Made by a program: the position numbers and the translations under genes. From assembly GCA_008632985.1 (NCBI GenBank), contig QPGO01000106.1:248001-287446 (forward strand): DNA of 39,446 bases, read 5' to 3'. Of this stretch, positions 7,158 through 39,446 are shown piece after piece. The notes beneath the pieces were generated by a model, which saw only the letters and a program-made list of their open reading frames with translations, was not told the origin of the DNA and ran no database searches. Positions within the stretch are counted from its first letter, which is position 1; every line of letters begins with the position of its first letter. The stretch comes from Psammoneis japonica (taxonomy: Eukaryota).

Positions 7158-7649
7158 TTTTTTCCCTTCGCGTCCGATTGCTGGCTGCTGTGTTCCTTGA
7201 AGATCTACTGACTATGATGTTGTGAGATTGAATGAAAAGTGGGAAGCTGGGAAACCTCACCGTCGGCTGCCATGACATGTCACGAGAAGCGTTGAGAAGG
7301 AAGAAGTCGTGAGTCGTGGGAAAGACAATGCGCGAATGATCACGAAGCGTGACTGAAACATGCGCAACGGCCATTCTCGCTCACATGACATGCGCGGTGC
7401 GCACATCATTGCACTGAGCACTGAGCGTGAAACCGCATCATTGAAGCCATGCGGTGGAATGCAGGGCCCAATGATGCATTGCTTGCTCTTTCATGTGAGC
7501 TCTGATCGTAACATCTCACGGTGATGGAATGCTGACACAGCAACCAGCCACCCAGCAGGGTCAAAAGTGGTCCATCATGCTTTCTCTCATCACTCTCGTG
7601 CACAAAAGAGGTGGGTCCGCAAGAAGGGCACAGAAGATGTGGCTTGGGG

Positions 7650-9680: not shown

Positions 9681-9689
9681 CTTTGTTCT

Positions 9690-10720: not shown

Positions 10721-10929
10721 TGCAGAATGACAGGTGCAATGGAGACTGAAATGATGAGCTGCTTGTCGTTTCACAGGAACTCTTTGATCGCGACAGCTCA
10801 TGGCAATGGAGTGATGACACAGCATCCACACAGCGGGATGATCAAGTGTTGGTTCATGGTGTGGCTGCTTTCATTGCTCGCACACAAAGATCATAAAAGC
10901 GCTGCAGCTCTGGAGCCACAAAGAGGACA

Positions 10930-12000: not shown

Positions 12001-12627
12001 TTTGAGCCCATCACTCTTCTGCTTTGCATTTTTTATCAGCATGGGTGTTGTGCATTGCAGAGTCTGAGTTGGTCTCTTTGGTGTGGCACCAGGTGGCCCA
12101 ACTCAGCGCCCACCATAAAATAAATGTTATTGCAGAGCATGACTGAGCGTCGCGAAAAAAAAAAGAATCGACTTCTCATCCTGAAAAATCCTCCTCACGC
12201 AATCAAAACAACAACATCCATCACTGTTACACCATTCCCCCCACTTTCCAACTGAACCTATTTGTCTTTTCGCCTCTTGTATATTGATTGGTATGTCTCT
12301 GCGTGTTTTTGCTTTCAGATTGCGTGCCAGCGAACAGAAGATCGCTCTCGTTCCACTTTCTTTGTCGCTGGAAGCTCGAACACGTACAGGTTGGAGCGCA
12401 CACTCGACGTTCGAATGAAGTCGATGCCGATTCTTCTCTTCTTCTTGCGATATAAGTCTCACACCTCATTGTGCACAAATTGACTCTCTGACTCTGTCTG
12501 TCTCTTTCTCTGTGCCTCTCTCTATATGTTCGCTACTTTACTTTCGCTCGCATCTTGCATCCTCGCTTTCAAGAGAAAGAACGCACGTGACCTCACATAA
12601 ATCAAGTCAATCGGTGCTTATCACATA

Positions 12628-15995: not shown

Positions 15996-16029
15996 AACTA
16001 CCATTTTGATTTCAATTTTGCATTTCATC

Positions 16030-19000: not shown

Positions 19001-20150
19001 AAGGCTTGGCACCTGCCTGTCATTCATGAAAAGAAGGAGCCACCCAACAAACCCACAGCTGATGCTCCTGTCCCTCCCAAGGCTCTCACTGACCATGAGG
19101 TTGGTTCTCTGTGCTGTGAGAATCCAATGTGGCAAGCAAGTGCAGCCAAGGTTGCAGACAAGTTTGTGTCTTTTGGTCCAGAGCAAACAGAACAAACCAT
19201 GCAGTTAGCTCCAACTGTGATGCAATGACCCAAGTTGCACAAATGTTGGTGACTTGCAAGAACTGTGACACTCGCTGCAAACACTGGACACTCCAATGGG
19301 TCAAGTGTTGGAGTGGTGGCCATGCACCCTTGTTGCTCCACCCCAAGGCCCAGTCTGAGAAGTGCATTGGGGATCATTGAAAGAAGGAAGGTGCCTTCAG
19401 GTGCTGTTGCTGCAACACACCCATTGGGTTGGGAAGGAATGCAGGTGCCAACACAAGGTTTGGAAAGCAACACAATGAGCATGAGAAGTGTTCAAAACTC
19501 ACTGATTCCAAGCACATTGGCAATGCTTCCCATTCTTTTTGTCCATCCAAAGAAATCAGCACCAAGATGTGAAAGAGCAAATCAAGTTACAACAGAGAGG
19601 AGGATGGTGTGAGGATCTTGAGCTCATCACACTCTTTTGGTGGTCACACAGTGACACAGACACGTCACAAATTTGCTCACCTCAGAAGGCCCTGATGGCA
19701 TGTTCCAAAGCTCTTTGGTTCGAGTGTCCAAGAAATTGGCAATGGTTGGTCACTTGGCCAATCTCTGTTTTGGAGAAGACTCTCCAGGATTTGAAAGCTT
19801 TGGTTGGCTTCAGATTTGCTTGAACCAAAAACCAATGGCATCTCTCTGCAACTTTGAAAGCCACTGTCTCACAGGCATCATCCTCTTGTGCAAAGCTGTT
19901 GCAGATGTGTCAGTCAAGAAGAACAATGAGCTGCGTCAGTCTCAGCACCAAAAGAGGATGCACAACACACAACTTCTCAAACATCACTTGCCTTTTTCAC
20001 CAGATTCCAGTCCAGAGTTGTGGCACTCCAGAGAGCAATTGCCTTCTCCAGCCATGGAGTCCATCCTGTTCTTGCAGCAGCGACAACATCTGTGAGTCAT
20101 CCTTTGCAGTGATGAAGCATGGCACCCACTCTTGCTTTTCATGCCAATGA
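16030..20150. other. Heavily TpA/CpG-depleted block, probably a decayed large coding element (unidentified)
   Basis: Only a handful of TA dinucleotides in ~4 kb. ORF translations are Tyr-free and Cys/His/Gln-rich, with some protein-like remnants (e.g. EEEESSDLFCTGAKDGSEEFSDDKEESILVLHG). Family not recognised. Confidence 0.45.
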
Positions 20151-20324
20151 GAAGAAATGGCACTTTTGCCTGAACTCCATCCCTTTGCTGCACCTGGTTC
20201 TCTGTTGTTTCATCCTTCACCTCTCTGGTCTCAACTGGGTGCTGAGAGCTTCAGGACCTGATTTCCCAATGAGCAGTGCTGTTTGCACTGCATGTCACAA
20301 CCAATGCCCCCAGGAAACCAAACC

Positions 20325-20515
20325 AAGATGCACCTGAGACTGAGACTGCCAACACCCTTCCCAGAGCACAAGCCCTTCCCAACAAATCAACACACACAGT
20401 TTTGTTTCAAGCCTTTGTGAGAAACAGATGAGCAGTCCACAGAAGTGCAAGAAAGTGTGTGAGATGGACTGCACCCTTGTGTTGTGAGCTCCATTCCACC
20501 CATCCACGCAACCTT
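20325..20515 (+). repeat. Decayed mosaic of two fragments from the RING locus
   Basis: 20325-20446 matches 4970-5086 (cttcccaacaaatc...tttcaagcctttgtgagaaa). It is immediately followed by a match to 4486-4550 (gcaagaaagtgtg...gagctcc...acccatccacgcaa). Confidence 0.75.
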
Positions 20516-20839
20516 GCAAGTGAACAAACTGCCCACAGTTGCATGCTCTGGGGGCAAGACTAAAAGAAAGACTGCAACTTTGTGACACTGTTTTCTAGAA
20601 GTGAGAGTCATCCTGGAAGTCCAACTTGGCACACTGTCACCAAAGATGAAGCATGTGAAACCAAATGCAATTGCACACATGGCAAACTTGTCAGCCCCCT
20701 CAAGTCAATGAGACAGACATTGAGTTGGCTTGACCCAATTTACTCTCTGGCTGCATTCTGTCACTCCAGTGTGACAACGGAGCCCTGACAACCTGCCTCA
20801 AACCCATTGGGACAAGGGAACTGGATCCAGGCTGTTCAT

Positions 20840-21745
20840 CAGCCATCACAGACATTGTGAAGTGTCATCTCCACTGGACCATCTCATTTCGTGCCACCAC
20901 ACATGACTTCAGTTGTGACATCCACCAGATTGCATTCAAATTGGACATGCCCAGTGAGTGACTTGCCCATTGTCACTGACTCCCTGATGGCATGACAACA
21001 AATCAAGTTGGATTTTTTCTTCAAAGTCAATTCCGGACTTTGAGTGTTGTGGACAACTGACATGTTGCACCCACAAACATGTGACAGTCCTGCCAATGGC
21101 ACACCCATCATTCTTGACTTGTGCCTTGGACCACGCAAGGCTTCCATGTCCTGCTTCATGGCTGCAAACTTGGCCCCAAAGACCACATGACCAAGGCCAT
21201 GTTCACACAGCAGATGAAATGGCCGGTGCATGAGCGTCTCATTTTTTTGTCATTTGCATGATCCAAGTCAACAAACAAATGCAGATCCACCTCCAAACCA
21301 AGAAGTTCTGGTGCATTGGTTGGGACAGCTTTGTGCACTTCCCCACAGAATGGCTTCCAGTCACATTCCTTGAAGTCATCCACATCTGTTTCTGGACACA
21401 TCGGATCCAGCACCAGCCTGGCATTGTGTCTGGCCTTTGAGCATCTGCGCGCATGTGGACTGCCTCAAGATGTTCCTCTCTGGGCATTGTGAGGAACAAG
21501 GCAAGCATGGAAACCTCCACAATCTGGATCAGCCAAGCATGGCTTCCATCCAAAGTGATGCATGCAGGAGGGGGCAGGTCGTTCTGGAAGGATGCCCTTG
21601 CACTCTTCAAACCACAAAGCACACGCTTGACCATTGCACACTTCCCCAACAAGTTGGTGCCAAACTCTGGGCCCAGAGTTGCAGTGATCTTCTCACTGTC
21701 AGGTGCAGAGAGACACAGGCATTTTCAATTTCCGCAGTCTCAACC
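20840..21745 (-). mobile_element. Decayed Ty1/copia (CoDi-like) RT-RNase H remnant with internal deletion
   Basis: Peptides AEIENAC, KRVLCGLKSARASFQNDL (ALYGLKSAGASFRNHL), LFVDLDHANDKKMRRSCTG (FVDSDHAGDKxTRRSRTG), MEALRGPRHKSRMMGVP, NMSVVHNTQSPELTLKKKSNLICCHAIRESV. Conserved Tyr residues are replaced by Cys/His. Confidence 0.9.
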
Positions 21746-21759
21746 TCTGAGCCATGCCA

Positions 21760-23210
21760 CCTGCCTGGCTTTGTGTGTTGTGGCAGCGGCAGCAGCAGCA
21801 ACGCAACAAAAAAGGTCACATGAAACAATGTTGCAAACAAGGGGAATGCTCATTCTTGACAGCTGCAAGGTTTTTGGCCACACATTGAACTGCGACACTC
21901 ATGCACTGAAATCTGCTGTTGTTGGATTTGTCAGCATCATGGCCCACTTCTGCTCCTCTCTTCATCTCAAGGCGGGCTTTGTCTGCTGCTGGTGACCCCA
22001 CTGAGAAGGAAGCTGGTGCAAGGACATTCAGGGTGCTGTCACTGTGCCTCACAGTCTTTGTTGTTGTGCCACTGCTCAACAAGCATGGCCTCCTGTGATG
22101 AAAAAGCATGTCACCCAGGCAGCTCATTGGCTGTTGTTTGAACCCATTTTTTGTGCTCACCCCAATCTCTGCTTTCTGTCTCCAATCTGCTTTCTGTCTT
22201 CATCAATGTGGCTGTTGTGACATTGCGCACTGCAATGAGTCATCTTTGGCATGCCAGGATCTAAAACAGTCAGGTTGTCAACTTTTGCACTTGGCTGCTT
22301 CTTTCAAGCCCTCAAAGCTGGCTGCATCCTCAGAGGCTGCTTGGCTTTGCTTTCTGTGGGTCAGTCCTTGGCAGTTGGAGCCACACATGTGTGCGCACAC
22401 TGGACAACACATTGTGGATGGCTTTCTCAATGTTCCTCTCTTCATCCAGTGTGATTGTGGCCATGGCATTTCCTGATGACATGGGCTGCATGGTCAACAT
22501 CATCAACACATCACTTCCAGTTGTCCTGCCCTTTGGCTTTGCATCTCTGGTCAAGTGCAAGAACTTCAGCCCAGCCACAGTCATTTGGGTTGCAAGCAAA
22601 ATGACAACAGTCAAGAGAGATGGCCTCTTTGGTGGCTTGCAAGTGAAAGCATCACACCAGGGTCATGTGCCGTTGTCATTCTGTGGTGGAAATGTGGGTG
22701 ATTCCCAGTCTCATTCACGGATGTCATTTGGCAAAAAAGAAAGGACTGAACAATGTCAACTTTGCCATTTGGGGGGATCTGGCACCCTGTTCCATCAACT
22801 CAGTCATGCACCCCCATCACAGGTTGAGTGTCAACCAAGCCGACAAAATGTCCGTCAAGGATGCGGCGCTGGCCGTCGCCAAGACACGCAAAATTGAAGG
22901 AAACATTACATTTGACACCTCCAAGGCGGGGACGGCCAGTTCAAAAAGACGGCCTCCACAACAAGAAGCTCGGAGCTACGAGATTACGATTACTCAAAAC
23001 GGCATTCAGAATTCGGTCGATTACGAGACGGCGCGAAAGTAACAAAGAGTAGTTCGCGTAGAATTTTTTGGTCATTTTGAATTTTTCTTTTTCGTTTCGT
23101 AGGGCGTCCATGGATACAACGTGGTGTCTGCTGTGGCATTAAACAACAAACAACAAATCCATTGTCATCGGGCTTGCGGTGAAACGGAAGCAAGAGTTTT
23201 GGTTTGGCAC
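21760..23210. repeat. Relative of 7930-9680; includes the 3' end of an unknown + strand ORF ending at 23042
   Basis: Colinear blocks with 8050-8140 and 8700-9680. The portion after ~22830 keeps CG/TA and reads ...EARSYEITITQNGIQNSVDYETARK*. Confidence 0.65.
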
Positions 23211-24067: not shown

Positions 24068-24682
24068 TAGGTGTGTGCTGCCCAAGGAGATAGTTGCAAA
24101 TCTATTTCGATGTTTTTTGCCCGCACAAGTATTACCTCTCTTGAATAGTTCGTCTCTGTTTGAGATTTTGAGGTACCAGTATACCGTGGCTCTCGTTGAT
24201 CGCAGATGATTCGCGAGCAGAGCACTGGCTCGCTCAAAAAGGCTCTGAGCCTCTAGCTTGATCTGGTTTCCTTCAAAAAAAAAAAAATGCAACATCACTG
24301 GTCTCACCACGGCACTCTGGGGCGGAGGCCACAATCGGGAGGCTGGTAGTCAATGTAAATTTTGCGACCCAGGGTGACGCTCCCCGAAGTGGATACACAG
24401 CGTCGGAATCCATTTCCCACCCACGCTTTGGCCGAGAAAGTTTACTTGCTTGACGTTCCAGCCCAAATGAACAATGTTGGACAAAAACGGGTCGTGCGGA
24501 GAATCTCGTACGACATCATGGACTTTCGACACATCATAATAATGCCTCTGCCATACAATGTACACAGCACAACATCATGCTCTGAAGCTCTGAAATAAAT
24601 CAGAAAAGGTATTACGTAGAGGGTGAGCAGCGTGTGATGAAAAAGTGACAGAATAATTGGCTGACCGTGACGTGGCGGATAC

Positions 24683-24961
24683 CTTGGCGCCAATTTTTTA
24701 GAAATAAATGTTTTCTAATGAATGTATAATCCAAAATGCATAAACAGATTTGCAATTTTAAAAATAACGGCTGACAATTTTAAGTTCATGATCCGTTGAG
24801 GGCAATACTTTTAGAAACATTTCTTAAAAATGATGTTGGAATAATATAAATATTTAAATTATTAAACATTACATAAATTAATTAATTTTTACACTATTCA
24901 AAGTCTGATATGATGTTAAAAATTGGAAGTGCCGACGAAATATCAAAATTTTGTCGCCAAG
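24683..24961. other. AT-rich island with imperfect flanking inverted repeats (possible MITE or promoter element)
   Basis: Very A/T- and TA-rich core (24840-24900). Left end cttggcgccaatttttt vs reverse complement of right end cttggcgacaaaatttt. No clear TSD. Confidence 0.3.
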
Positions 24962-25285
24962 CAACGCTCTCACAACTTCGCACAATATCGGCTTGCGGTG
25001 GCTGCAGAGGTGAAACAACGTTCGGATTTCACATTTTTGTGCAACCTGCTATTGTGAGCCTCCACTCTGCCAACGCTCAGGTACGAAAATGGTAATCACT
25101 GCTGGTGTTTTAGCCGTTGCTAGAAGTTCGAGAAAGCGTCACGCGAGCTCCAGAGCCACAAGCACTTAAGGGCGATCGGTTATCGTCTGCAACGACCAAG
25201 GTCACATCTCACTCATATTGTTTGCCTGCTGATTCTTCTCCTGTGTGCGCCTTTGGGTAGTTTGGACAGACGAGTGGAGACAACA

Positions 25286-27032
25286 ATGAAGCTTGCATTC
25301 GTCTTCGTGGTCGCTGCGGCCCTCTCGATGCATTGCATTGTGGGTTTCGACAACAATCGGCTCGTCAGTGACAGCATCAACACGGAACGGAGGTTACGTG
25401 GAAAGAAGGGTAGTAGTAGCAGTAGTAAAAGCAAGGGTGGAAAGAGAAGCAGTAGTTCCCGCAGCTCCAGCAGTAAAAGCAAGGGTGGGAGGCGCAGCAG
25501 CAGTTCCAGCAGCTCCAGTGGTAGCAGCTCACCACCACCTCCCCAACTACCGCCTCCACCGTCTCGATCCAGTTCGAGCTTGTCCAGTTCGAGCTCAAGC
25601 TCATCCAGTTCGAGCTCATCCAGTTCGAGCTCAAGCTCATCCAGTTCAAGCTCGTCCAGTTCGAGCTCAAGCTCATCGCCTCCGCCGCCAACGCCTTCAC
25701 CGACATCCCCGCCTCCGCCGTCTAGTTCCTCGTCTAGTTCCAGCTCAAGCTCGTCTAGTTCAAGTTCATCCAGTTCGAGCTCGTCCAGCGGAAGCTCGTC
25801 TAGTCCGCCTCCGCCACCTGTTAAAGACAGCAGCAGTGGTAGCAGTTCTAGTAGCAGCACTAGTGAGACGATTCCTCCTCCAGACGATACCAGTTATAAC
25901 ATTGACATTCAATTCAGTGGTATCAAGCCAGCGGATGAAGCTACTCGAGCTGCTGCGAGGCGTTGGGAACAAGTGGTCGTTGGAGATCTCCCTTCATATG
26001 ACTTTGGTGATACGATTCCCACAGGATGTACATTTCGACCACGCGTCGTTGACGACATGGTGCTTTGTGCAACCACGCCTTCAGTTGACGGTCCTGGTGG
26101 CTTTCTTGCATCGGGCGGACCCCTGAGAGTCCGACCGCGAACCGCGGCTGGAGGCGTAGGAGAAGGGCTTCCTGCGTCCGCTTCGTTTCGAATAGATGCA
26201 GGAGATGTCCAAAACTTTGCGAATAGAAATCTTCTTTTTGACATTGCTCTCCATGAAATGGGTCATGCGTTGGGTATAGGTAAGTGCAAACTATGATGAA
26301 CAGTACACTTGATCGGACGCCATTGGTGTCACTCAAATGTTGAGTTTCCGTTGTTTCACAGGAACTTTGTGGGGTGCAAATGCTTTCAATCTGACGGGCA
26401 CGGGAAGATTTGGGCCATACCGATCCGGCACTGCTGCCTGCCGTGAATACGAACGAATCACGAGTTGCCCCGGATGCCCACCGGTACAGTCAGGAGGGGC
26501 TCATTGGAATGAATTCAATTTTAGATCCGAGTTAATGACGCAAGCACTTGGTCCGACCGAGGCTCTGCCACTAACCGCAATTACCATTGCTGCCTTGGAA
26601 GATATGACCTACGAAGTCGATTACTCTTCTGCCGATCCTATTGGACCGTTTACCTGTGACTCACCTCCTCCACCATCTGTGCCAGTATCCGATGGGATGG
26701 GTAGCGAAGGCATATCAGCTCTTTCACAAGAATCAGAATCATCGTCATCGTCGTCTTCATCTTCGAATGAATTTGATCACTCTGGCAGTAGCAGTAGTAG
26801 TAGTGAGGAAGAATCTCGAGGCCGCCGCCGCCTTGAACTCAGTGAGCAAGGATGGCAAAATGCAATGAAAATGGGGAAACAAGTACTGGAGGAAAATCGA
26901 TTGGCACACATGGCCGAACTGGTCGATGGAGTTGATCCGTTAGAGGGTGAATACGTGGGCCACCTTTGTACTTGCGTATTTTACGAGGAAGCAGGTACAA
27001 GCTACGCAGTCATGGTATTCGCAGACGAGTGA
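25286..27032 (+). CDS. Secreted Ser/Pro-rich leishmanolysin-like (M8-type) zinc metalloprotease, ~554 aa, 2 exons
   Basis: Signal peptide MKLAFVFVVAAALSMHCIVG, RRL site, poly-Ser/Pro tract. HEMGHALGIG zinc motif followed by GAHWNE and ELMT. Intron 26280-26361 (GTAAGT..CAG) joins the two ORFs in phase. Confidence 0.88.
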
Positions 27033-29798
27033 AACTCTATACAAGAAAATAAAATGCATGTCCTAGAGGTATAATTTTTAGTTTGTTCCTCGTTCTATAA
27101 CAAATCCTATCACCTTTGGAAAGGAATCATTACAATTTCTGTTGGAGGGTTACAAAAGCACTTCCACATCTATTCGCTTGAGTTCAGAGTGCGGTGGGTG
27201 CGACATGCTCTGCCACTTGCCAGCTAGAGAGAGCATCTTCATGCTCGTCAGTGATGGCTTCTCATTTTACAAACATGCACACATGTTCGTGCGCAACCCA
27301 AATCAAACATTGGCAATGCTCACGCTGTTGCCACATGAAATCGATTGTGTGGAGTTGCATCTCTTGTGTGTGTGTGGCCACGTTCTACACCCCGATTTGG
27401 ATGGAGGTGGTTATTCTGCCATCCTTTGTTTCGGCAGATTTTTTGCAACAGGATGGGTTGTCATGTGCCCCGGCCTCCAGTCCGCTCCTTGATGCTTTCT
27501 GAGAAAGAGACTTTTGCATCCTCCAACAACATGACTCAGAAAATGTAAAATGAGCAACTCATCCTCATGCCTGGCTGCCAGTGCAGCCTCTTCAGAAAGC
27601 CAACCCAGAGGTGCAACATGGGAAATGGACAAAAACTTGCTGGAGCAGATGACAACATCATGCAGCAGATGAGGTGTCCAAGCCTTCATTGTTTTTTGGA
27701 CCATCACACAATGCTGGTTCCACTGGAGGCTGGTGATTGATGAGTGGTGTTTGCAATTGTTCAATCAGAGATCTCTCTGTCAAGAATTTTTGAAGCATGC
27801 CAATTTGGTTGTGCCATGCCCTGCACAATCTTTGGCCAACAAAACCAAAAAATTGCACAAGAAGTTGGCAAGAATTTTGACACTGTTGCCATTGATGCAG
27901 ATCCTTTGGATGCATTGAAAATGCCAAAGGAGGGCATCAAAACATGTGCTCAAGCAAGGTTCAATGATGTTTGGAGGTTTCAGAGGTGCCATGCAATGGG
28001 CCAGATCAATGCAGGCTCACAACTTGACAGTGACTTCAGTGCATTGCAGGAGTGACCTCCACATGTCACTGACAACTCAGAGGTTCTTTGTGCAGAACCA
28101 GCACCAAGATGTGAGTCAGCAAACAACCACATGTGGCTCAGAAGGGCCGCTTATGCAGAAATGCCAACTTCAACAAAAAATGAGGCCGCAATGAAGCAAC
28201 ACACCAACAGCACATTGGACTTTAAAAATCAAGTGAACACCAAAAAAAGTTTGCACTGCATCAACAAACAGATGTTTCTGTGTTGACTGATGTGAGTGAT
28301 GTTTTTGCAGCAGACATCTTGTCATTTTTTTTTATTTTTTCCATTTTCACCCATTCTTTGTCAGGCCATTTTTGGTGCACCATGACCCAGGGAGGGGGTG
28401 GGGGCAACAATTGTGCACATCATGTGTGATTTCACATGGTGAACCACCATGACTGCATGGCTTGGAGTGGGAGTGGGGTCAGGAAAGCAAAGAACACCAG
28501 CCCCAGATTTTCCTGTGCAGACGAGTGGCTTGGATCTAAGAAATCTTTTGATGCTGTGACAAAGCAGCTGCTGCAGTGGCCAAACCACCATGACACCATT
28601 GATTTGGAGAGTTGGGTTGGGTTGAAAATGCAGAATGAAGTTTGTTCACACAAAAGCATTGGCTGGTGCTTTGTTTTACTAAAAAGGAGACTCTCCAACA
28701 ACATCGTCAGCAAAATCATGCTGGATGATGCCAGCACTGCCACACAGAACAACAAAAATCAACAAGCTGAGCCAGTGCCTTGCTCTCATCTGCTTTGGAC
28801 CAGTTGTGGACATGCTGCAAACTGTCAAATCTGAAAACAGAAAAGTGTGGCTTGTGGGTGGCAAGTGTTTTCATGGACTGCGCAACTCATTTTCAGCACC
28901 AAGGAGGCAAAGAAGCTTGGCTGTCATGGGATCAACAACAAACTGCAAAATGGAGTGCTGCCACAAGTGGGTTTCCCACTGATGCTCCTGTTGCATGTCT
29001 TGACATTGACAAAGGGTTGACTCCCCTTTTTGTGCTCTCTGAGTCTCATGATTGTTGAGCATCTGCACCCATGCTTGACTCTTGAGAGCTCTCTTTTTGG
29101 GTTTGTGCTGGCCAGACTTTGTGAGCCCCAACATGCAGCCAGAAAGTGTGAAACTCCAAAATGTGAGCATCATCAGTCTCCCACTCTTTAAAATGATGTC
29201 TTGCAAGAATGTGGTGGGCACACACCATTCATGGCACAGGGCACATTGGAGGGCACGCAGCTGATTTTTTGCAAAAGTTGCCTTTTTTGCAAGGGAGAAA
29301 GTGGCTGCAAGGGACAAATTTTGGCAACAGCTCTGTGGCTCACACAAACCCCTGCTTGCAACCCCAAAAGTTGTCAGGAGCTTGGCATGAGCACAAAGTC
29401 AGTCAGCTGGAAATGCACTTTGGCAGAAGAGTTTTTGTCGCTGCATGTGGCACTGCAGGGTTGAGCAACATTGCTGTGCATGACTCTTTTGTGCTCTTGC
29501 TGTGACCCCATCCATTTGTCACATGACTCACTGACATCACACCACACTTTCAACAGCCATTTTTGAGGAGTTGCACTCATTCTGCACAAAATTGTGTGGG
29601 AGAAAGATCTGGCAGATCTTTCAAGCCAGCCAACACTCTCACAAAAAATCTCCCACCACCTTGTCTTGGGATTGTGCCAAGGCCCAGCCTTGTGCTTCCT
29701 GATGCCAACTCTTGCTCATTTCTTCTTTTGACCACAAGCCCCCATTTTTAATGTTTGCTCTGGCTGCTGGAGAAAGCAACCATCATGCTGCTGGTCAG

Positions 29799-30405
29799 TG
29801 GGTCACAACAAAAGGCACAGCTGACTTTGTTGTTTTTTGTTTGCTTGGCTCAAGCTTGCTTCCCAGCTTTGTGGTTTTTTGATGTTTGCAAGAAAAATGG
29901 GATCTCAACTTTTTGTGTGCACAGTGCATTGTCCCCACAAGTGTGGAGAGTTGATTGGAAAAACAGTCCCCCCCTTGGAGTGCAGCCACTGGCTGTGCTG
30001 TGGGCCAGAGGGTCATGACAAAGTGATCAGCAGCTGTCTTTGTTGTTTTTTGTTTTGCCTGGCTCAATTTTGCTTCTCAGTTCTGTGGGTGTTGACATTT
30101 GCAGGAAAAATGGGGCCCAAGCCTTTTTGTGTCCAATGCATTGTCCCCACAAGTGTTGAGGGCAGGTTGACAAAATGACTCCCTTGGAGTGCAGCCACTG
30201 CTCTGCTGGTTGGCCAGCAGGTCATGATGAAGGGTGCAGCTGTCTGTGTTGCTTTTGTTGCCAGGCTCAACAAGTTTGCTTCTCAGTTTTGTGGACATGT
30301 CAACAATGTTTGCTGGAAAAATGGGGTCTCAACTTTTTTGTGTTCAGCGCATTGTCCCCACAAGCATGGAGAGTTGATTTGCAAAATGACTCCCTTGGAG
30401 TTTGG
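29799..30405. repeat. Degenerate tandem repeat, ~210 bp x 3
   Basis: Units start near 29799, 30010 and 30220. Each has ggtca..., ggctcaa, gaaaaatggg, gcattgtccccacaag and cccttggagt. Confidence 0.85.
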
Positions 30406-31509
30406 GCAAGGCACTTGACAATTGCCCACTGTTGTTTGTTCCCATTTTTCTCTTGTGGCTGGTGCACTCCCTGCAGAGCTTGCTGGCTGATTGTGCAATG
30501 TGAGTGTAGAATGAGGTTGTTGCTCCTGGCACCTGCATGGGAGCCCTGTCATCATCTTGATTCTGAGCACAACAAAATTCACATGAGCCAGCTTGCTGTG
30601 CCACAGCAGTGCATGTCATGAGCTTTCAAATGCTCATCTTGCCCTCTGGAGCATGTTTGTTGGCATCAGATTGTGCTGTGCACAGCTCTGGAGCCCATGC
30701 ATTTTTGCCCCACTTGTCATCTGCTGGCAAATCATTCACCAGAGTGTCAGGGAGATCAACTGCAGCAGCAATGCTGCACACTCCAGGGGTCAAGGCAGCA
30801 AGATTGAGCAGACACTGGAGGCTGCACTTTTCAAGTGTCATGATGATGTGTGTGCAAACGCCAGCCAACTCTGGGTTGACCAGGCCCGTGCCATTTTGTC
30901 AATGAGCACATGCAATTGTGGGCACCCTGTCCAAAACATTTGTGGCAGCTGATGTGCTCCAGCCCCAGGTGGGGCTCCATGTGATGTTGGGCCTGCAGCA
31001 TTCCACAAGTGGGCCCCTCAGCAAAATCCTCAGGCAGCAAATGCGCTGATGATCACTGACAGAAGAAGAGGCACCAACTTTGCAAAATGTGCAAGCTCAC
31101 TCACCATGCTTGTTGCAGCAGCAAACCATCTCTGGTTTGCAGGGGAACCCATGCAACTTAAAACAACAGCAGCCAACAACATGAGTTGCAACACCTGTTG
31201 CCTTGACCAGCACCTCAGCCGACAGCTTTGACATGTGAACAAATGCAAGCATGCCACTCAAATTGAACAACACCTCCAAGAAGGATTGCAGCAGTGGCAC
31301 AGCCAACAAGAACCTGACTGTGCCTGGAGCAGACAAGCCAGTGTGAAAAACTTGCAGTCACAAAGATTGCTGAAAGACAAATGGAGCTGGTGACATGATG
31401 GAGGCAATGCAAATGTTTGCCTGTTTTGACAAATGCAGATCACACTTTTGTCAGTGCCAGTGGGTGGTGGCATCCATGTGTTGACAGCTCTCAATTTGCT
31501 GTTGCTGGG

Positions 31510-31915
31510 CATGCAAAACTTGCTGTCACCAAGACTGCTCTCAAAAGTGAACAGAAACAGCATTGCCATGAATGCAGTGCAAATGTTGACTCTCAGTCTT
31601 GACAATCAGCTGTCACCAAGACAATCAAAAATTGAACAGCAAGGCACTGTGATGCATGCAGTGCAAATGTGGACTCTGTCTTGATGCCAATCATCAAAGT
31701 TTGCTTTTCTGTCAACACCCGGTGGTGGTGCCCAACAAGCATTGTTCAATCTTCATTTGGCACTGCTCCACTGGCCAGATGTTTCAAGCCAGTGCAACAA
31801 AACTTGCTGTGTCACAAGACCACTGAAAAGTGAAAAGCAATGGCATTGTGATGGATGTGGCACAGAAATGCTGACTGCTCTTGACAACCACAATTTGCTC
31901 TTTTGTCAACACCAG
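31510..31915. repeat. Degenerate ~90-bp repeat, three copies
   Basis: gctgtcaccaagac...gcagtgcaaatgt.gactct at ~31520 and ~31609, with a weaker third copy at ~31800. Confidence 0.55.
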
Positions 31916-32869
31916 CAGGCAGTGGCATCCACTCCACTGGCAAGATTTCTCAGGCCTGTGCAACAAAACTTGCAAGCTCCAATGAGCAGTTTTGGCAGCC
32001 TGTTTGGAGATTTTAATCCTCATCTTGAGACCTGCAGCACAGAACAATGCAGTGTTCATGGAGTGGACGACACAGGAAGCAATGTCTCCTCTCAGAAAAG
32101 CCAAGCAAGTGTGGCCAAGGGAGACATGAGACACCATGCTGCAGAAAACAGTGTGCTCAACAATCTGCTTTTTCTGGGGTGCAAAGAATTGGCAAGGGAA
32201 GTCTTGACTGCCAAATCACCTGGTACAAAAGCAGGTTGCAGGGGGCATGGATGCCATGGAAACCTTTTTCAGAAATTGCAGCTCCAGCCAGATCTAGAGA
32301 GTTGGTCATTTCATTCACCAGCAGCAGTCATGCACTTGCTGTGCATGATGAAAAAGCACCAAAAGTTCATGAACAGCCTTCTGCATTGTTTTGGAGATCA
32401 GGCCCACACCGTGCTCATGCTCCATTGCTCTTTTGATTTGTTGTTGCTGATCCTTGCCCAGTGCTGTTTTTTTGCCAAAGTTGCAGACTCTGGCAGCTTC
32501 TGGCACAAGCTTGCAACAGAGGCGCAGCTCTTCAGGAGGCATCTGGCACCATCACCGCATGTGTGCAGAGAATTTGAAGATCATCAAAGTGACATTTCCA
32601 CTTCTGATTGACAGCACCATTTCATGGCCTTGCTCTACAAAGCTGTCAAAGTGGGCAGCAATCCAAAACCAAAATTCCATGTTTAAAGTGCTGTTGTGCT
32701 TCTGCCCTGTGACTCCAGAAAACAAGCTGACCCACACCCCCAGCACATTGCAGCACGGCAGGAGCATGTGACAACTGGCTGAGATTGATGCCACAAGCAT
32801 GGGCCCCACAGGAAAGAGCTGGCATCAGCAAAAGCTGCATGGCAAAATGAAGCATCAACATCAAAGTGC

Positions 32870-33385
32870 TTGGGCAGAGAGCAATTGACAGTTTGACAAG
32901 TCGATCATCCAAAATGTCCTCAAAGACATGCAAAACTTGTGTGGAAATGCAGGCAAACCAAAGAAAGGCAGGATCATGCCAAGATCATTCACAACACAAA
33001 GTGGGGAACTTGAGCTGACAATGGGTGGAAGGGGGTTGTTAATGCCTGAGAGGTGTGGGCAGAGAGCAGTTGACAGTTTGGCAAGTTGATCGTCCAAAAT
33101 GACCTTCAAGACATGCAGAGCTTGTGCTGAAACTTGTGCAGAAATGCAAGCAAATGGAAGAAAAGGCCAAATCATGCTGAGTTGGTCTCAAGTTCAAGCT
33201 TCTGGGAGTGCCAATGATGGAAGACTGTTCACCACATGAAGCAGGGAACTGAAACTGACACCAGACAAAAGGGGGTTCATTGATGCCGGTGAGGCATGAG
33301 CTGAGAGCAGTCGACAGTTTGTTGGCAAGTCAGCCATCCGAGATGACTTTCAGAGCACAGAATTTGTGCTGAATCTTGCATTGAA
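32870..33385. repeat. Degenerate ~185-240 bp repeat, three copies
   Basis: gggcagagagca.ttgacagtttg.caagt.gatc.tccaaaatg at 32872 and 33057, with a weaker copy at 33298. Confidence 0.7.
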
Positions 33386-33462
33386 CTTCGCAGACAATGG
33401 AGCAAATTGCCAAAAAGAATGACAATCAAGTTGGCCAAAGAGCGTGGTGCTGGTTGCTCTCC

Positions 33463-33738
33463 TGACAGGATTTGAACAGGATTTGGGTGCGCGCGAAACA
33501 TCGCGCGCTGTTTAGTTTACCGCGCACAGTTTTGTGTGCTTTAGTTCCGCGCGTTCGCGCGCGATGTAGTTTGCTTTCGAGCCACAAGGCTCACAAGAAT
33601 AATGACAGTAGCCCGATTGTGCCGACTTACACGTCTTTCGGCTCCTGCAACGGTCTCTGAGCGGAGACTCATCTGCTGTTTAGACAGCAGCAAGGAGTTG
33701 TTGTTTGAATTCTTGCCATTTGCCTTCAATTTCTGTCA
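33463..33738 (+). repeat. 5' LTR
   Basis: 276-bp direct repeat of 36891-37166, TG...CA termini. Confidence 0.95.
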
Positions 33739-34697
33739 GATTGACAGTCTTGCTCATTGTCAACCCATTGAGCAACCGCCATCGTCGTCGTTGATTTGCC
33801 AACGACGCCATTTCAATTCTACGTGGACCTCCGCATGTGTTCTACATACATCGGCAAGTCTACGCGCATTCAACACCAGGGCATCGGCAGGAAGTTAACG
33901 TCGCCGTCAAGTCTCCTTGCCGCTGGATGTCTGGATTGACCATGCCACCTTCAATCGCTGAAGACATACATTCAACGGTCATGTCCAAGTCTGTCCTTGA
34001 TCCTCATCCCTTGATGTGCCCATTCATCGGTCAACGGTCAAGAACCCTGCACATTCAAGGATCTTCGTTGCTGAAGACATGTGTGTTGTGTGTGCATGTC
34101 TTCACGGCCAAGAACCTGCACCCACTCTTCGGACTGCGGTTTTGCTGCCACTCTACAAGCACACCGAGTCCATTGCACCTGATCTGCCCCAGACTGCCGG
34201 TGCCCCACAGTTCTGCCAGGTCCACGAGGATGACTGTGAGAGCAAGCAGCCGTGATTGCAGCCTGCGTTAGGGCGAGGGTGCTTTCCCGCGTTTGTTCGT
34301 TCGTCCACAGTGCCTGACGCCTGCGTCAACTGGCCAGCCTGATCGGGAAATCCAACCGACATAAAATAAGAACGGTTCGGGGGTCTTGTCCACCTCTGGT
34401 CAGCTCACCTGCAGGGGTTTGCAACCCGCTGCTCCGCTCGCAAGCAACCCAAAGCACCACCAGCTGCGGGTTCGGACGTGCCGGCACAACTCTACGGACC
34501 GGACAGGAAGTTTAGCACTTGACAACGAACGGGATGGCACAACCCGGCGACTTCTGATTTTAAGACAGTCCAAGATTTCAAGTCAAGTCTAGCTCAAGTC
34601 AAGTCTTTTTCAAGCCAAGTTCCAAGTCAAAACTCCGAGTCAAGATCGCGCTCTAGATTGGTTCCTGTCTTTTGTTTCCACTGCACCGTCCTCTGTC

Positions 34698-35387
34698 ATG
34701 GTTCTCACGCGACAGCAACAAACCGAAAGCTTCAAACACATTCCAGGCACTGTGCTCAATCAAGACGATGACAGCCCTCTTCGTTCTGCCCTGTCCATCA
34801 ACGGGATTGAATCGTGCGAGGAATTGTTCACGTTCTTACCCACCCAAATTGACGCCCTCACTTACAGAGACGGCGCCAATGTAGTGCCTTTGCCACGGAC
34901 CCACAGAAACCTCCTAGCAGCTTTGATCAGCTTCTACTTTGTCAAAGTTTGCAACGGTGATGATGTGACCAATGAACCCCAGTTGCTCACACCCGAGGAA
35001 TTTCGCAACTGCCGCCTTGGTCCGGACTGCTTGACCTCTCTAGCCACTGGCGCAGCACCCTCCGCACCTGTGCCGAGTCCCTTGCCATCCAAACCAGATG
35101 AACCCAGTGCCATTTTGACACCAGCCTTGCACTGTGCCGCCACTCAGGTGTCTCCTAGAAGTGGTGTCAGTCGCGCCCCGCATGTCTTGACCAACCCGCC
35201 TGCAAGCAACCTCGTCCCAGTGCAGGATTGCAGCCCCTTGCACAGGCCCGCACTTCGAGACCAGTTGGGACACTCCACCCATGGCTTCCAAAGCTGCAGT
35301 CTTTGCACCCCGCAAACCACGTGCTGCCAACCTCCACGTGTCGACTTCTGTCGCTGTCACCCTTCACAGTCTTCGTTTGGGAAGTGA
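34698..35387 (+). pseudogene. gag-like N-terminal remnant of the LTR element
   Basis: MVLTRQ...FKHIPGTVLNQDDDSPLRSALSINGI...IDALTY...RNLL resembles the N-terminus of diatom copia polyproteins (recognised from memory). Preceded by TCAAG-rich leader repeats at ~34565-34645. Confidence 0.6.
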
Positions 35388-35540
35388 TGGAGGTGACAAC
35401 TTGCTTCTCGCATCTCCTGATGGGGAGCCTCCTTTTCCGTCATTAAATCTGTTCACAACAGTTCAACCGGTTCATCAGATGGGGAGTTCAGGACATCCAA
35501 GCAGCTTCGTTGTCTTCGGATCCTCCAAGCATCGCACCAT

Positions 35541-36338
35541 GAGACCAGGCCTCCTGATTGGATGCCTCAAGTCTCGTACCTCGAGACTGGGCCTCCTGAT
35601 TGGATGCCCCAAGTCTCGTGCCTCGAGACTGGGCCTCCTGATTGGATGCCCCAAGTCTCGTACCTCGAGACCAGGTCTCCTGATTGGATGCCTCAAGTCT
35701 CGTACCTCGAGACCAGGCCTCCTGATTGGATGCCTCAAGTCTCGTACCTCGAGACCAGGCCTCCTGATTGGATGCCCCAAGTCTCGTACCTCGAGACTGG
35801 GCCTCCTGATTGGATGCCCCAAGTCTCGTACCTCGAGACTGGGCCTCCTGATTGGATGCCTCAAGTCTCGTACCTCGAGACTGGGCCTCCTGATTGGATG
35901 CCGCAAGTCTCGTACCTCGAGACTAGGCCTCCTGATTGGATGCCCCAAGTCTCGTACCTCGAGACCAGGTCTCCTGATTGGATGTCCCAAGTCTCGCACC
36001 TCGAGACTGGGCCTCCTGATTGGATGCCTCAAGTCTCGCACCTCGAGACTGGGCCTCCTGATTGGATGCCCCAAGTGTCGTACATCGAGACTGGGCCTCC
36101 TGATCGGATGCCCCAAGTCTCGTGCCTTGAGACCAGGCCTCCCAACTGGACTCTCAACGTCTCGTGCCTCAAGACCGGGCCTCCCAATTGGATCCTCCAC
36201 GTCTCATACCTCAAGACTTGGCCTCCGGATTGGATCCCTCAAGTCTTGCGCCATGAGACTCGGCCTCCTGATTGGATCCCCCAAGTCTCGCACCTCAAGA
36301 CTTGGCCTCCTGATTGGATCCCCGAAGACTCGTGTCAC
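35541..36338 (+). repeat. 42-bp tandem array, ~19 clear units plus ~4 degenerate units to ~36490
   Basis: Consensus gagactgggcctcctgattggatgccccaagtctcgtacctc, period exactly 42 (35541, 35583 ... 36297). Encodes ETGPPDWMPQVSYL. Confidence 0.95.
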
Positions 36339-36639
36339 AACACTGGCAAGTCCTTTTGGATCCCAGAAGTCTTGCAGCACGGGACTGGTTGCCCCAATCA
36401 GACATCTGCAGCCTTGCACCACAAGATGTCTTGCTCCAATCCGATCCCCGAAGGCTTGCACCTTGAGACTCGTTTCTCCAATTGGATCAGTCTCTCAGGA
36501 GATGCAGTCAGATTGGTGGAACACAAGACCACCGCTTGTGCCTTTGAACTGATGCTTGCTCTGTTCCCTGAGTCGTGCAAATGCCATGCCGCCTGCAATG
36601 TTGCCCCACCATTCAACATTGTCAACCAGACCAAGCTTT

Positions 36640-36790
36640 GCTCCTTCCATTGCAAGCGCGGATGTGGAATCCCACAAGATCCCAAGTGTGCCTTGAGCTT
36701 TGAAAAGCACAACGGCATCTGCGGTTGGGGAGACGCAGCTCATCTCAAGATGACCCACTTGGAGAATGCAACGTTGCTCTCGGATCTTGA
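36640..36790 (+). pseudogene. Remnant of the copia integrase-RT linker
   Basis: CKRGCGIPQDPKCALSFEKHNGICGWGDAAHLKMTHL resembles the CoDi-type motif YKYGYEIPRxYxxALxLDxxNGNxxWxDAxxLEMxQL with Y to C changes. Confidence 0.6.
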
Positions 36791-36890
36791 TCCTTTCTTG
36801 TCTCCTCATGTTTTGGTGCTTTGACTCCAAAGTTCTTTAGTCAATCCGAAGTCGAATCTGTTTCTGTGGCTCCTCAAGCAAACTGGGGAG

Positions 36891-37166
36891 TGACAGGATT
36901 TGAACAGGATTTAGGTGCGCGCGAAATGTCGCGCGCTGTTTAGTTTACCGTGCACAGTTTTGTGTGCTTTAGTTCCGCGCGTTTGCGCGCGATGTAGTTT
37001 GCTTTCGAGCCACAAGGCTCACAAGAATGACAACAGCAGCCCGATCATGCCAACTTGCACGTCTTTCGGCTCCTGTGACGGTCTCTGAGCGGAGACTCAT
37101 CTGCCATTTAGACAGCAGCAAGGAGTCATTGTTTGAATTCTTGCCATTTGCCTTCAATTTCTGTCA
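36891..37166 (+). repeat. 3' LTR
   Basis: 276-bp direct repeat of 33463-33738. Confidence 0.95.
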
Positions 37167-38090
37167 TCTCCAATGAGCAAGATTTCTTGTGATGATGAAA
37201 CAGGGGCATGTCAACATGTGAGAAGGAGAAGCCAGCAGTCGGAGTGGGCAGGCTAGAGCCATCATCACACCATCAGAGAAAGGTGACATCAGCAGCACCA
37301 GAGGCCATGCAGAGTCACACACAGGCAGTGTGGCAGAGAGACAAAGGCAGAAAAAATGTCAAAGCAGGCAAAGAAAAGGAGGGCGTGGCTCCTGCTCCTT
37401 GCTCAGGCCACAAAAAAAGCTCTTTCTTCTTCACTCATGAGGAGAACAGTTTGGGTTACAGCATTCACAATGCCATCATGAAGGAATCCTTTTGTAGAGA
37501 CGTGAGCATGTTATAAAGAGAAGCGGACACGCCAACCTTGGCGAGGTGCGGTGCTCGTTCTCCAAAATCACGAGCCACTTGAACAACACACGAGCTAAAA
37601 AAGTATTGCCTGTTTTACAGAGGCTTTATACAATTACTATGGAAATGAGTATTTTTATAACCGTTTAAGGGCATGAACGTATTCAGCATTGAAGGCTACA
37701 TTAAAAAATCTGGATCGTGTTCCGACATAATAAAAATTTGATTCCGCGACCAGGCCAATTTTGTTGCTCACAAGATCCAACCACCATCCCTTATCTTGCG
37801 GTGCGACAAGAAAGAAACTTTGTCATTCCACTTTGGCGAGCATCGATATCCTGAGAATCCACCAGGGTGCAGGTAAGAAGATGTTGTTTGAATCGAGGGT
37901 TTTCCTGCTGTAGAGCCCAAAAATAAAAGTGTGAAAAAGCGTCGGGCTCCATTGGTTGTCAGAAGAGCACTTTGAACGTGAGAGGTGTGTGCTGCTCTAC
38001 AGACGAAGGTCCTAAGTTGCTGACTTTTTTTGTCTCAATCCTTTCTTGTGTAAACATTAGGGTGGTTTGGGTAGACGCGCGGAAACAAGA

Positions 38091-39446
38091 ATGAAGTTTG
38101 CACTCGTATTGTGGTCGCAACGGCGGCCCTCTCGATGCAATGCATTTTGGGTTTCGAAAACGACCGGTTCGTTAGTGACAGCATCAGCATGGAACGGCGC
38201 TTGCGTGGAAAGAAGGGTAGTAGCAGTAGTAAAAGCAAGAGTGGAAAGGGCAGCAGCAGCTCAAGCACCTCCAAAAGTAGCAGCTTTTCTGGGTCTTCCG
38301 ATTTACCACCGCCTCCTCCGCTGCCGCCTCCAAGCAGTAGTAGTAGCAGCAGCAGTGGCTGTCCTCCAGGCTCTGTGCACCCGCCGCCCACTCCAACACC
38401 ACGAGTGCCAGCTCCTTCTAGCAGCAGTAGCAGTAGCAGCAACAGCAAGGGTGGCTCAAGCAGCAAGAGCTCGAGCGGCTCGTCTAGCAGCAAAAGCTCA
38501 AGCGGTTCCTCTGGATCAAACCGCAGCAGCTCTTCAAGTTCAAGCAGTAAGTCTTCATCATCAAGTGACGACTGGCGTAGCAGCTCGTCATCATCCAGCA
38601 ACGGTTCCTCATCAAGTAGCAGCAATGGCGCTCCAATGCCGTCACCACCTCCTCCTCCGCCGCCGCAGTCGCTGCCGAAACCACACAGCAGCTCGTCATC
38701 ATCGAGCAAAGGATCATCATCGAGTAGCAGCAAAGGTGCTCCGATGCCGCCACCACCTCCACCGCCACCACCACCTCCTCCGCCGCCGAAACCACACAGC
38801 AGCTCGTCATCATCCAGCAACGGATCCTCATCAAGTAGCAGCAAGGGCGCTCCAAGGCCGCCGCCACCACCTCCTCCTTCTCCTCCTCCTCCACCGCCGC
38901 CGAAACCACACAGCAGCTCATCATCATCCAGTAAGAGATCCTCATCGAGTAGCAGCAAGAGTGCTCCGAGGCCACCACCACCACAACCTGCGCCAACGCC
39001 GCCACTTCCGCCGCCGATACCACACAGCAGCTCGTCATCATCCAGCAAGAGATCCTCATCGAGTACAGCAAGGGCGCTCCAAGGCCGCGGCCACCGCCTC
39101 CTCCTTCCCCTCCTCCACCGCCGCCGAAACCACACAGCAGTCCTCATCATCCAGCAAGCGATCCTCATCGAGTAGCAGCAAGGGCGCTCCAATGCCACCA
39201 ACATCTCCGCCGCCGCTGCCGAAACCACAGCAGCTCGTCATCATCCAGCAAGAGATCCTCGTCGAGTAGCAGCAAGGGCGCTCCGCTGCCACCACCACCT
39301 CCTCCGCCGCCGACCCCTCCAACGCCACCACACCTCCACCAGTCCGCCCACTTCCGCCGCCGAAACCACACAGCAGCTCATCATCATCCAGCAAGAGATC
39401 GAGTAGCAGCAAGGGCGCTCCAATACCAAAGCCAACCCCACCACCG
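38091..39446 (+). CDS. Secreted Ser/Pro/Lys-rich repeat protein, paralogue of the 25286 gene; frameshifted as assembled and truncated by the window end
   Basis: 5' end aligns with 25286 (MKxAxV..[43 protein letters not shown]). One base is missing near 38109. ~33-aa repeats [23 protein letters not shown](P)n. Further indels near 39065, 39140 and 39229. Confidence 0.7.

Follow-up and report, generated by a model that had tools for sequence, protein, structure and literature searches.

The window analyzed here, a stretch of 39,446 nt of contig QPGO01000106.1 (assembly GCA_008632985.1, deposited as Psammoneis japonica) numbered from its first letter as position 1, carries at 33463-37166 a long terminal repeat (LTR) element whose two LTRs differ exclusively by transitions within pyrimidine-purine (YpR) dinucleotides. 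The phenomenon is much larger than this LTR pair. Our results are most probably explained by a region-targeted conversion of TpA to TpG or CpA in silent, repeat-rich blocks, with a slower loss of CpG alongside. The change has a defined direction, is specific for TpA, is restricted to certain domains, affects both strands symmetrically and proceeds faster than CpG decay. A first-pass annotation of the LTR pair had proposed that, beside CpG decay, a second process removes TpA by A:T to G:C changes; this proposal is now backed by the composition of the domains, by comparisons of genes with their decayed copies, by outgroup proteins and by the most abundant variant of the element family, and we hold with considerable confidence that such a process is real.

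Mosaic of converted and ordinary domains

The dinucleotide profile revealed that the window is a mosaic of TpA-free and ordinary domains. The converted domains are the following:

1-2283, unstranded: TpA almost absent and CpG partly retained; holds a decayed lipoxygenase-like copy
7214-12033, unstranded: holds a decayed RING-finger copy (9677-10734) of the region 5326-6355
16184-22906, unstranded: TpA-free runs of up to 1,520 bp, with 0-4 CpG per 250 bp up to 22750
27413-33462, unstranded: hosts the LTR element and resumes at 37167 to ~37456

Together, these four domains span 19,962 bp and contain 57 TpA against 1333 expected (~4%), 250 CpG against 1166 expected, and 4561 TG+CA against 2492 expected, so that the TG+CA surplus of 2069 approximates the TpA and CpG deficits (1276 + 916). 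The surplus is symmetrical between strands (TG 2295, CA 2266). The genic domains (15,446 bp) hold 528 TpA against 999 expected and 881 CpG against 932 expected, and their G+C content equals that of the converted domains, because the TpA and CpG conversions offset each other. Throughout converted DNA, rho(TpA) is 0.00-0.12, rho(CpA+TpG) 1.5-2.05 and rho(CpG) 0.04-0.5; for instance, seven successive 1-kb windows in 16001-23000 display rho(TpA) of 0.00-0.08 and rho(CpA+TpG) of 1.77-2.05, and 28001-33000 is alike. The edges of the converted domains are sharp, and the adjoining genes have ordinary TpA and CpG. Furthermore, certain 250-bp bins (e.g., 7251-7500) contain 0 TpA yet 19 CpG; therefore, the loss of TpA is separable from the loss of CpG, and ahead of it.

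Short TpA-rich stretches with 16-23 TpA per 250 bp were found at 27001-27250 and 37501-37750, at the edges of converted domains, and at 24501-25000, within a genic domain. They perhaps represent promoters or intergenic DNA that is not targeted, and show that a non-coding nature by itself does not bring about conversion. Within the domain starting at 27413, 29782-30401 and 32844-33381 consist of short tandem duplications (periods of ~210 and ~185-240 bp, respectively) whose copies differ mainly by transitions, TG/CA double differences among them.

Converted DNA is almost devoid of TAA and TAG, leaving TGA as the sole stop codon, and Cys and His codons are abundant. For lack of TAA and TAG, it contains long spurious open reading frames (ORFs), and the converted domains and the element together contain 62 such frames, counted from stop to stop, with a length of 110 aa or more. 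In a Pfam search with 56 ORFs from these regions, the matches were limited to the RING finger and a single zinc ribbon below threshold, with no transposable element (TE) or viral family among them.

Genes and their converted copies

A self-BLAST of the window yielded three paralogue pairs (A, B and C), each matching a genic segment to a converted one, and a control pair (E) in which both members are genic:

Pair A, 2476-3310 (genic) and 24-830 (converted), + strand: genic member within the lipoxygenase-like ORF 2689-4299
Pair B, 4305-4512 (genic) and 1444-1659 (converted)
Pair C, 5322-6354 (genic) and 9678-10733 (converted), + strand: genic member is the RING-finger ORF 5359-5793
Control pair E, 25239-25475 and 38044-38279: both genic

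The genic copies of pairs A-C have normal TpA and CpG and intact reading frames. Pairs A and C are 96% identical in purine/pyrimidine space, compared to 86% when all letters are considered. The 86 TA sites of the genic members of pairs A-C correspond in the converted members to TG in 38 cases, CA in 32, TA in 8, CG in 1 and other states in 7, i.e., 70/86 became TG or CA; the 99 genic CG sites correspond to CG (40), TG (23), CA (28) and other states (8), i.e., 51/99 became TG or CA. The reverse change was nearly absent, with only 2 of 299 genic TG or CA steps being TA in the converted copy. In the control pair E, TA was kept at 5/8 sites, and 24 transitions were found vs 20 transversions. In the lipoxygenase-like region, 2468-4734 has a decayed tandem copy directly upstream (16-1892), in which 26 of 28 aligned TpA are lost. 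Apart from these changes, converted copies bear ~5% other transitions, ~2.5% transversions and indels, as in old pseudogenes. For the RING domain, the score falls from 39.7 bits in the genic copy (5359-5793) to 28.9 bits in the converted copy (9830-10264), both on the + strand.

Rates by context, calculated per base after collapsing the strands, single out TpA. A>G changes occurred at 73/179 TpA (40.8%), compared to 20/359 ApA (5.6%), 9/262 GpA (3.4%) and 28/302 CpA (9.3%), and thus the excess at TpA over other contexts that the initial proposal implied holds (40.8% vs 3.4-9.3%). C>T changes were raised at CpG (52/200, 26%), the remaining contexts being CpC (11/175, 6.3%), CpT (15/235, 6.4%) and CpA (19/303, 6.3%), the last at background level. 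Transitions in the remaining T contexts, TpC included, were likewise at background (16/311), with other A and T at 4-5%.

The polarity of these changes was assessed by aligning the genic copy of pair A with 13 homologues (~43-53% identity). The Pfam match of the lipoxygenase-like ORF 2689-4299 itself is sub-threshold, and its homologues (~50% identity) carry PF00305. Of the 48 codons that specify different residues in the two window copies, 37 have the outgroups in agreement with the genic copy, 1 with the converted copy and 10 with neither; for instance, Tyr codons TAT/TAC appear as CAT/TGC in the converted copy where the outgroups have Tyr. Given that outgroup proteins side with the genic copy 37 to 1, the comparison indicates that the converted copies are the derived ones and that the direction is TA to TG/CA. 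Several sites with TG in the gene and CA in the copy belong to codons for Val (GTG/GCA) or Leu (TTG/TCA). If the ancestral codon was GTA or TTA, a silent change in the gene and a free change in the copy could be one route by which CA/TG doubles arise from TA.

The duplicated unit of pair C is longer than the pair itself, since ~5326-8411 matches 9677-12020. The second copy is converted throughout and the first only beyond 7214. Because 5326-7213 was spared while the rest of the same copy was converted, homology alone does not define the target, and we infer that chromatin state does.

The LTR element and the divergence of its LTRs

A repeat search of the window recovered a direct repeat of two 276-nt copies (33463-33738 and 36891-37166) with 93% identity, which were aligned with MAFFT and compared position by position. 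The features of the element are:

33458-33462, unstranded: target-site duplication (TSD) TCTCC, left copy, 5 bp
33463-33738, + strand: left (5') LTR, 276 nt, TG...CA ends; 8 TpA, 22 CpG
33739-36890, + strand: element interior, 3.15 kb; rho(TpA) 0.22
35541-36333, + strand: 42-bp tandem array, 19 units
36885-36890, + strand: purine run GGGGAG, polypurine-tract-like, abutting the right LTR
36891-37166, + strand: right (3') LTR, 276 nt; 6 TpA, 19 CpG; 19 transitions relative to the left LTR, all YpR
37167-37171, unstranded: TSD TCTCC, right copy, 5 bp

The region 33463-37166 is a single LTR-element insertion on the + strand, as supported by the TG...CA ends, the shared TCTCC, the GGGGAG run and the contigs of other family copies, many of which stop or diverge exactly at 33463 and 33738. 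GGGGAG also precedes position 33463 in the loose ends of other family copies, as seen in the contig comparison. Terminal direct repeats, TG...CA ends, a short TSD and a purine tract before the 3' LTR, all characteristic of LTR retrotransposons, are thus present. No Pfam match to reverse transcriptase (RT), integrase or gag was obtained among the interior ORFs, and for this reason the element is probably non-autonomous; nor was a primer-binding site identified.

The LTRs differ at 19/276 positions, without indels, and 19/19 differences are transitions located within YpR dinucleotides; read from the left LTR to the right one, they comprise six G>A, five T>C, four C>T and four A>G changes. Consequently, the two LTRs are 100% identical in purine/pyrimidine space, and none of the 132 non-YpR positions differs. 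Arranged by dinucleotide, the changed steps are CA/TG at six sites, TA/TG at three, TA/CA at one, CG/TG at two and CG/CA at one, and the unchanged ones are CG/CG (19), TG/TG (18), CA/CA (17) and TA/TA (5). The first-pass annotation had reported the count, the exclusive transitions, the absence of indels, the YpR restriction and this tally by manual alignment, and each figure was reproduced exactly. YpR steps cover 144 of 276 LTR positions, and the probability that all 19 differences fall there is 4.3e-6; the six adjacent pairs among the 19 differences have a probability of ~6e-4 under random placement and of 1.5e-3 if placement is YpR-restricted. CpG was changed in 3/44 copies, compared to ~62% of TpA according to a model estimate. 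With rho(TpA) of 0.47 and 0.34, the LTRs, like the interior, are intermediate relative to the surrounding converted domain, and within the interior 36208-36837 has zero TpA. We read the restriction of the differences to YpR steps as due to the position of the element in a converted block, where it would be part-way through conversion.

The six CA/TG double differences had been explained by independent hits on opposite strands of an ancestral TA or CG. A CG ancestor for all six (19 kept, 3 single, 6 opposite) is rejected (G = 20.3, p = 6.5e-6). A TA ancestor (5 kept, 4 single, 6 opposite) gives a hit probability of 0.62 with a better, still marginal fit (G = 6.2, p = 0.013). Three accounts of the excess of doubles remain, namely strong rate differences among TpA sites, episodic saturation of susceptible sites, and linked family variants imported by gene conversion or assembly polishing.

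The 42-bp array offers a comparison within the element. One of its steps is TA in 11 units, TG in 3, CA in 4 and CG in 1; another is TG in 8, CA in 6, TA in 1, CG in 1 and other in 3; and two CpG steps are retained in 17/19 and 13/19 units. The array points the same way as the family comparison below, TpA being lost and CpG largely retained.

The element family in sample contigs

The family was examined in Logan contigs from four runs of one sample, placed on 33263-35390 at a likeness of at least 80%. In one run (X1), 5324 contigs match this region, with a summed depth of ~90 in the unique flank vs 310,000-624,000 over the LTR; these depths are not a copy number, and the family is very abundant. 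Of the X1 variable places, 118/126 (94%) are transitions, and among the 40 of 131 variable places listed, none of which lies within the LTR, almost all are YpR toggles. Searches with two degenerate LTR patterns gave 0 matches in metagenome contigs, and the second pattern also gave 0 in viral contigs.

The other three runs are very small and can assemble only the most abundant sequence of the family. Over 33800-34366, 19 sites with a clean alignment are TA in their contigs and TG (11) or CA (8) in the window copy, and the opposite polarity, with TA in the window and not in the abundant variant, was found at 1 site (34270). With those 19 sites, the abundant variant approaches the composition-expected number of TpA (29.6), while the window copy has 9; the latter has thus lost ~70% of its TpA in this region. 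The net CpG loss of the window copy relative to the abundant state is ~1/35, the CpG differences being 34069 (TG, family CG) and 33903 (CG, family CA). The family state at variant sites, on which the earlier interpretation depended, is accordingly TA in the abundant variant for the internal region (19 vs 1), with the LTR sites outside the rows listed.

Five rows in a TG microsatellite were omitted from the 19-site count because their alignment is ambiguous. This microsatellite, (TG)n at 34083-34092 of the window copy, has TA-containing variants and small indels in other copies.

As a rough estimate, the rate per dinucleotide is 0.97 for TpA vs 0.07 for CpG in the LTRs, and 1.2 vs 0.03 in 33800-34366, according to which TpA conversion is ~14-40 times faster than CpG decay.

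Proposed process and mechanism

In the process we propose, TpA would become TpG or CpA through an A:T to G:C change on either strand of this palindromic step, in transcriptionally silent, repeat-rich chromatin and with neighbouring genes spared. In the same blocks, presumably methylated CpG would decay to TpG or CpA at a lower rate. The LTR element, as a member of a high-copy family, would have landed in such a block, its conversion being part-way. As the chemical step we favour an enzymatic route in which adenine in DNA would be deaminated to inosine by a TadA/ADAT2-type enzyme (the tRNA-A34 deaminases), recruited by the silent-chromatin state. We infer the enzyme, the chromatin cue and a role in defence. 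If the process is real, about half of our credence goes to adenine deamination, and the other half is shared equally by thymine modification and by some other mechanism.

In tRNA A34 deaminases, U33 lies 5' of the target A, and the bacterial TadA target is UAC. In pairs A-C, the changed A was followed by C in 26/71 events vs 8/71 for the opposite-strand A (p = 0.006, post hoc), and this 3'-C bias recalls, by analogy, the UAC target of TadA. Among the candidates listed in the first-pass annotation, a TadA-like deaminase would fit best, a modified thymine is a live rival, and error-prone repair of the polymerase (Pol) eta type with a WA preference is contradicted by the background rate at ApA. 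Strand-coordinated (processive) editing was also considered and dropped, since no same-strand runs were found in the TG/CA series (runs tests, P = 0.26-0.71).

A broader reading, which might equally well hold or fail, is that a TpA-erasing, chromatin-guided editing of DNA exists in another algal lineage, unrelated to the first and possibly that of a diatom. Its likely chemistry would be the deamination of adenine at 5'-TA, with TAC perhaps preferred, and it would be far more pervasive than the case already described: more than 95% of TpA would be stripped from every silent block, a new LTR element would be hit faster than the background, and the editing would end within a few hundred bases of active genes.

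Several points weigh against the conversion reading. TA ancestors with independent, equal hits fit the LTR counts only marginally, as stated above. The linked CA/TG doubles of the interior (33952/3, 34461/2 and 34504/5) have TG or CA, not TA, as the abundant family state. Family polarisation covers the internal region, the 13 LTR sites not being individually polarised. The 3'-C bias was replicated weakly (6 vs 4 of 19, and 2 vs 0 of 4). The whole analysis concerns one 39-kb window, and the family data come from a single sample, possibly the source sample of the window itself. Finally, the sequences compared are assembled contigs, and a base-calling or polishing artefact at modified bases keeps a small probability.

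Alternative explanations

The strongest rival, although still an unlikely one, keeps the process and changes its chemistry: the thymine of TpA would be modified in silent or TE chromatin by a TET/JBP-type dioxygenase into a base resembling 5-hydroxymethyluracil (5hmU), which would pair at times with G and produce T>C. As TpA is palindromic, T>C and A>G are indistinguishable from sequence. Moreover, dinoflagellate 5hmU is described in the available part of one source as repeat-enriched and as aiding TE silencing, with older work placing it preferentially in TA and TC (PMC11572971). Against this possibility, T in other contexts, including TpC, changes here at the background rate (16/311), and the mixed gene orientation of the window differs from the unidirectional gene arrays of dinoflagellates.

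Somewhat less likely is that the LTR differences did not arise by mutation in situ and instead reflect polymorphisms of the family, brought in from other copies by ectopic gene conversion or by polishing. Import would account for the excess of linked CA/TG doubles over the independent equal-rate expectation, and material for it exists, given the 5324 X1 contigs at a likeness of at least 80% and the linked CA/TG pairs found family-wide at 33952/3, 34461/2 and 34504/5 with near-equal contig counts for both letters. However, it merely shifts the question, as the family polymorphisms are themselves 94% transitions and at YpR steps. Furthermore, the differences are scattered across LTR positions 23-238 and form no single tract, and the intact, matching TSDs speak against inter-element recombination.

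An artefact, arising from long-read base-calling errors at modified heterochromatin bases or from polishing with paralogous short reads, appears improbable. In its favour, errors at modified bases tend to be transitions, no sequencing technology is recorded for the window or for X1, and a very abundant family favours mis-polishing of the LTRs. Nevertheless, miscalls on both strands would leave a mixture including TA and CG, and not a TpA content at ~4% of expectation. One contig of X1, with a depth of 67, is identical to the TpA-free flank (33263-33462) in 199 of its 200 letters, the same YpR-transition variation occurs among thousands of k-mer contigs, and converted copies also bear the other transitions, transversions and indels noted above, at ~5% and ~2.5% for the first two. 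In addition, the process was observed directly in Illumina mutation-accumulation lines of another alga, according to the accessible part of a preprint (10.64898/2026.01.13.699255).

Very improbable is C>T deamination alone, whether by decay of 5-methylcytosine (5mC) or by a process like repeat-induced point mutation (RIP), with the doubles deriving from CG ancestors and TA as an end product. CpG is indeed lost in the converted domains, and the DNMT4 enzymes that diatoms carry are related to fungal RID in the portion of the source at hand (PMC9998398). Such a process would enrich TpA, which is instead depleted (57 vs 1333 expected); C>T at CpA is at background (19/303), merely 2/299 genic TG or CA steps became TA, outgroups indicate that TA is ancestral, the CG-ancestor model of the doubles is rejected (G = 20.3, p = 6.5e-6), and one member of each duplicate is spared. 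Equally remote are WA-directed error-prone repair and GC-biased gene conversion. Pol-eta-like repair and GC-biased conversion are known sources of A:T>G:C changes; the rate at ApA (20/359, 5.6%) vs that at TpA (40.8%) indicates that the motif is TA, not WA, and since other A and T change at 4-5%, there is no general AT>GC drive. The RIP-like, CG-only and WA-motif readings are rejected on context rates and model fits.

Comparison with known systems

The first-pass annotation knew of no description of such a system, and this has been superseded by a 2026 preprint on Bigelowiella natans, in which integrated viruses are shown to be hypermutated by A:T>G:C changes at TpA only (Mettrop et al., 10.64898/2026.01.13.699255). 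According to the accessible part of that work, two integrated viral regions mutate ~1000-fold faster in mutation-accumulation lines, in some lines only, with 230 of 231 single-nucleotide mutations being A>G or T>C, all at TpA. The same source describes 124 TpA-poor, CpA+TpG-rich clusters in the 95-Mb genome, defined by rho(TpA) of at most 0.43 together with rho(CpA+TpG) of at least 1.52 in at least 3 consecutive 1-kb windows, with 3.3% of TpA left in the viral region. RT/DDE and TE-type domains are enriched among the TpA-poor genes, and an ADAT2-like deaminase is proposed. As for diatoms, no report of a TpA-erasure signature was found in the literature searched.

As far as that preprint is accessible, both cases share changes at TpA to TpG or CpA depending on the strand, limited to certain regions, and our window passes the compositional cut-offs by a wide margin, in sharp-edged domains beside normal genes. 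The differences are several. Our evidence comes from sequence, that of B. natans from mutation-accumulation lines; an LTR retrotransposon and the decayed copies of cellular genes (lipoxygenase-like, RING) are targeted here, compared to giant-virus and virophage inserts there; and erasure is near-complete here, leaving 4% of expected TpA over half of the 39-kb window in four clusters, compared to 124 clusters per 95 Mb. The organism is probably not B. natans, since searches with the kinase and the lipoxygenase-like protein also gave no near-identical match. Genic TpA represents 3.4% of dinucleotides here vs a genome average of 6.0% there, and CpG>TpG/CpA is also raised here (52/200), unlike the almost exclusive A:T>G:C of B. 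natans. We read this raised CpG loss as a second, ordinary process.

Fungal RIP consists of C>T transitions, preferentially at CpA, in which both copies of a duplication are mutated. Similar to RIP, the conversion described here is a transition-only, dinucleotide-specific hypermutation that degrades duplicated DNA and may have a role in defence. Unlike RIP, which makes TpA from CpA or TpG by C>T, it destroys TpA through A:T>G:C changes; C>T changes at CpA do not exceed the background, the genic copy of pairs A-C is spared where RIP mutates both duplicates, and the window lacks strand-coordinated clustering. As in the decay of methylated CpG in TEs, CpG becomes TpG or CpA in the converted domains (51/99 genic-state CpG); removal of TpA is beyond the reach of 5mC decay, which is presumed here as regards methylation and is slower than the TpA loss.

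APOBEC3 and ADAR editing resembles our case as a deaminase-type transition hypermutation of retroelements. The substrates of APOBEC3 and ADAR are RNA or cDNA prior to integration, and the resulting changes run in one direction and would be largely common to both LTRs, whereas here the LTRs diverged after integration, the strands were hit equally and gene duplicates were converted too. ADAR prefers a 5' U, as stated in the accessible part of the B. natans preprint (10.64898/2026.01.13.699255). Dinoflagellate 5hmU shares with the present case the T in TpA, the enrichment in repeats and the link to silencing, and is a conceivable route to T>C; TpC is unaffected here, the organism looks unlike a dinoflagellate, and the available part of the source describes no mutational footprint (PMC11572971).

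Other features of the window

A protein-kinase ORF at 12601-14250 (+ strand, best homologue at 45% identity), with a weak MLKL_N-like N-terminus, overlaps in a different frame the FG-GAP_2 repeat ORF at 14145-15995 (+ strand), and the two may belong to a single gene interrupted by an intron or frameshift, or may be neighbouring genes. In a protein-cluster atlas, the FG-GAP_2 match was a cluster dominated by Bacillariophyta, a weak hint at diatoms, and the lipoxygenase clusters matched were bacterial. At 38455-39446, within an unconverted domain, an array with a period of ~114 bp and abundant Ser and Pro codons runs past the window end and is partly similar to 25234-25633.

Significance

To our knowledge, natural DNA mutators driving A:T to G:C are almost unknown. 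The sole direct report so far is the 2026 preprint on one alga, whose accessible part pins down no enzyme (10.64898/2026.01.13.699255). Our analysis extends the targets to LTR retrotransposons and decayed gene copies, shows that erasure of TpA can be near-complete and accompanied by a loss of CpG, and finds this signature, legible by eye, in an organism that probably belongs to another lineage, where the LTR pair supplies a clock. In practical terms, rho(TpA) against rho(CpA+TpG) constitutes a simple genome-wide marker for silent chromatin and for further organisms carrying the process, while the spurious long ORFs and weak zinc-finger-like matches of converted DNA represent a trap for gene finders. 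The gene/pseudo-copy and LTR pairs are natural material for determining rates and sequence preference, and offer a route to the enzyme; should this prove to be a chromatin-guided deaminase acting on adenine in double-stranded DNA, both genome-defence research and base editing would have an interest in it. If the reading is true, TpA erasure would be an ancient and widespread signature of defence or heterochromatin among protists of the Stramenopiles-Alveolata-Rhizaria (SAR) group, extending beyond one chlorarachniophyte.

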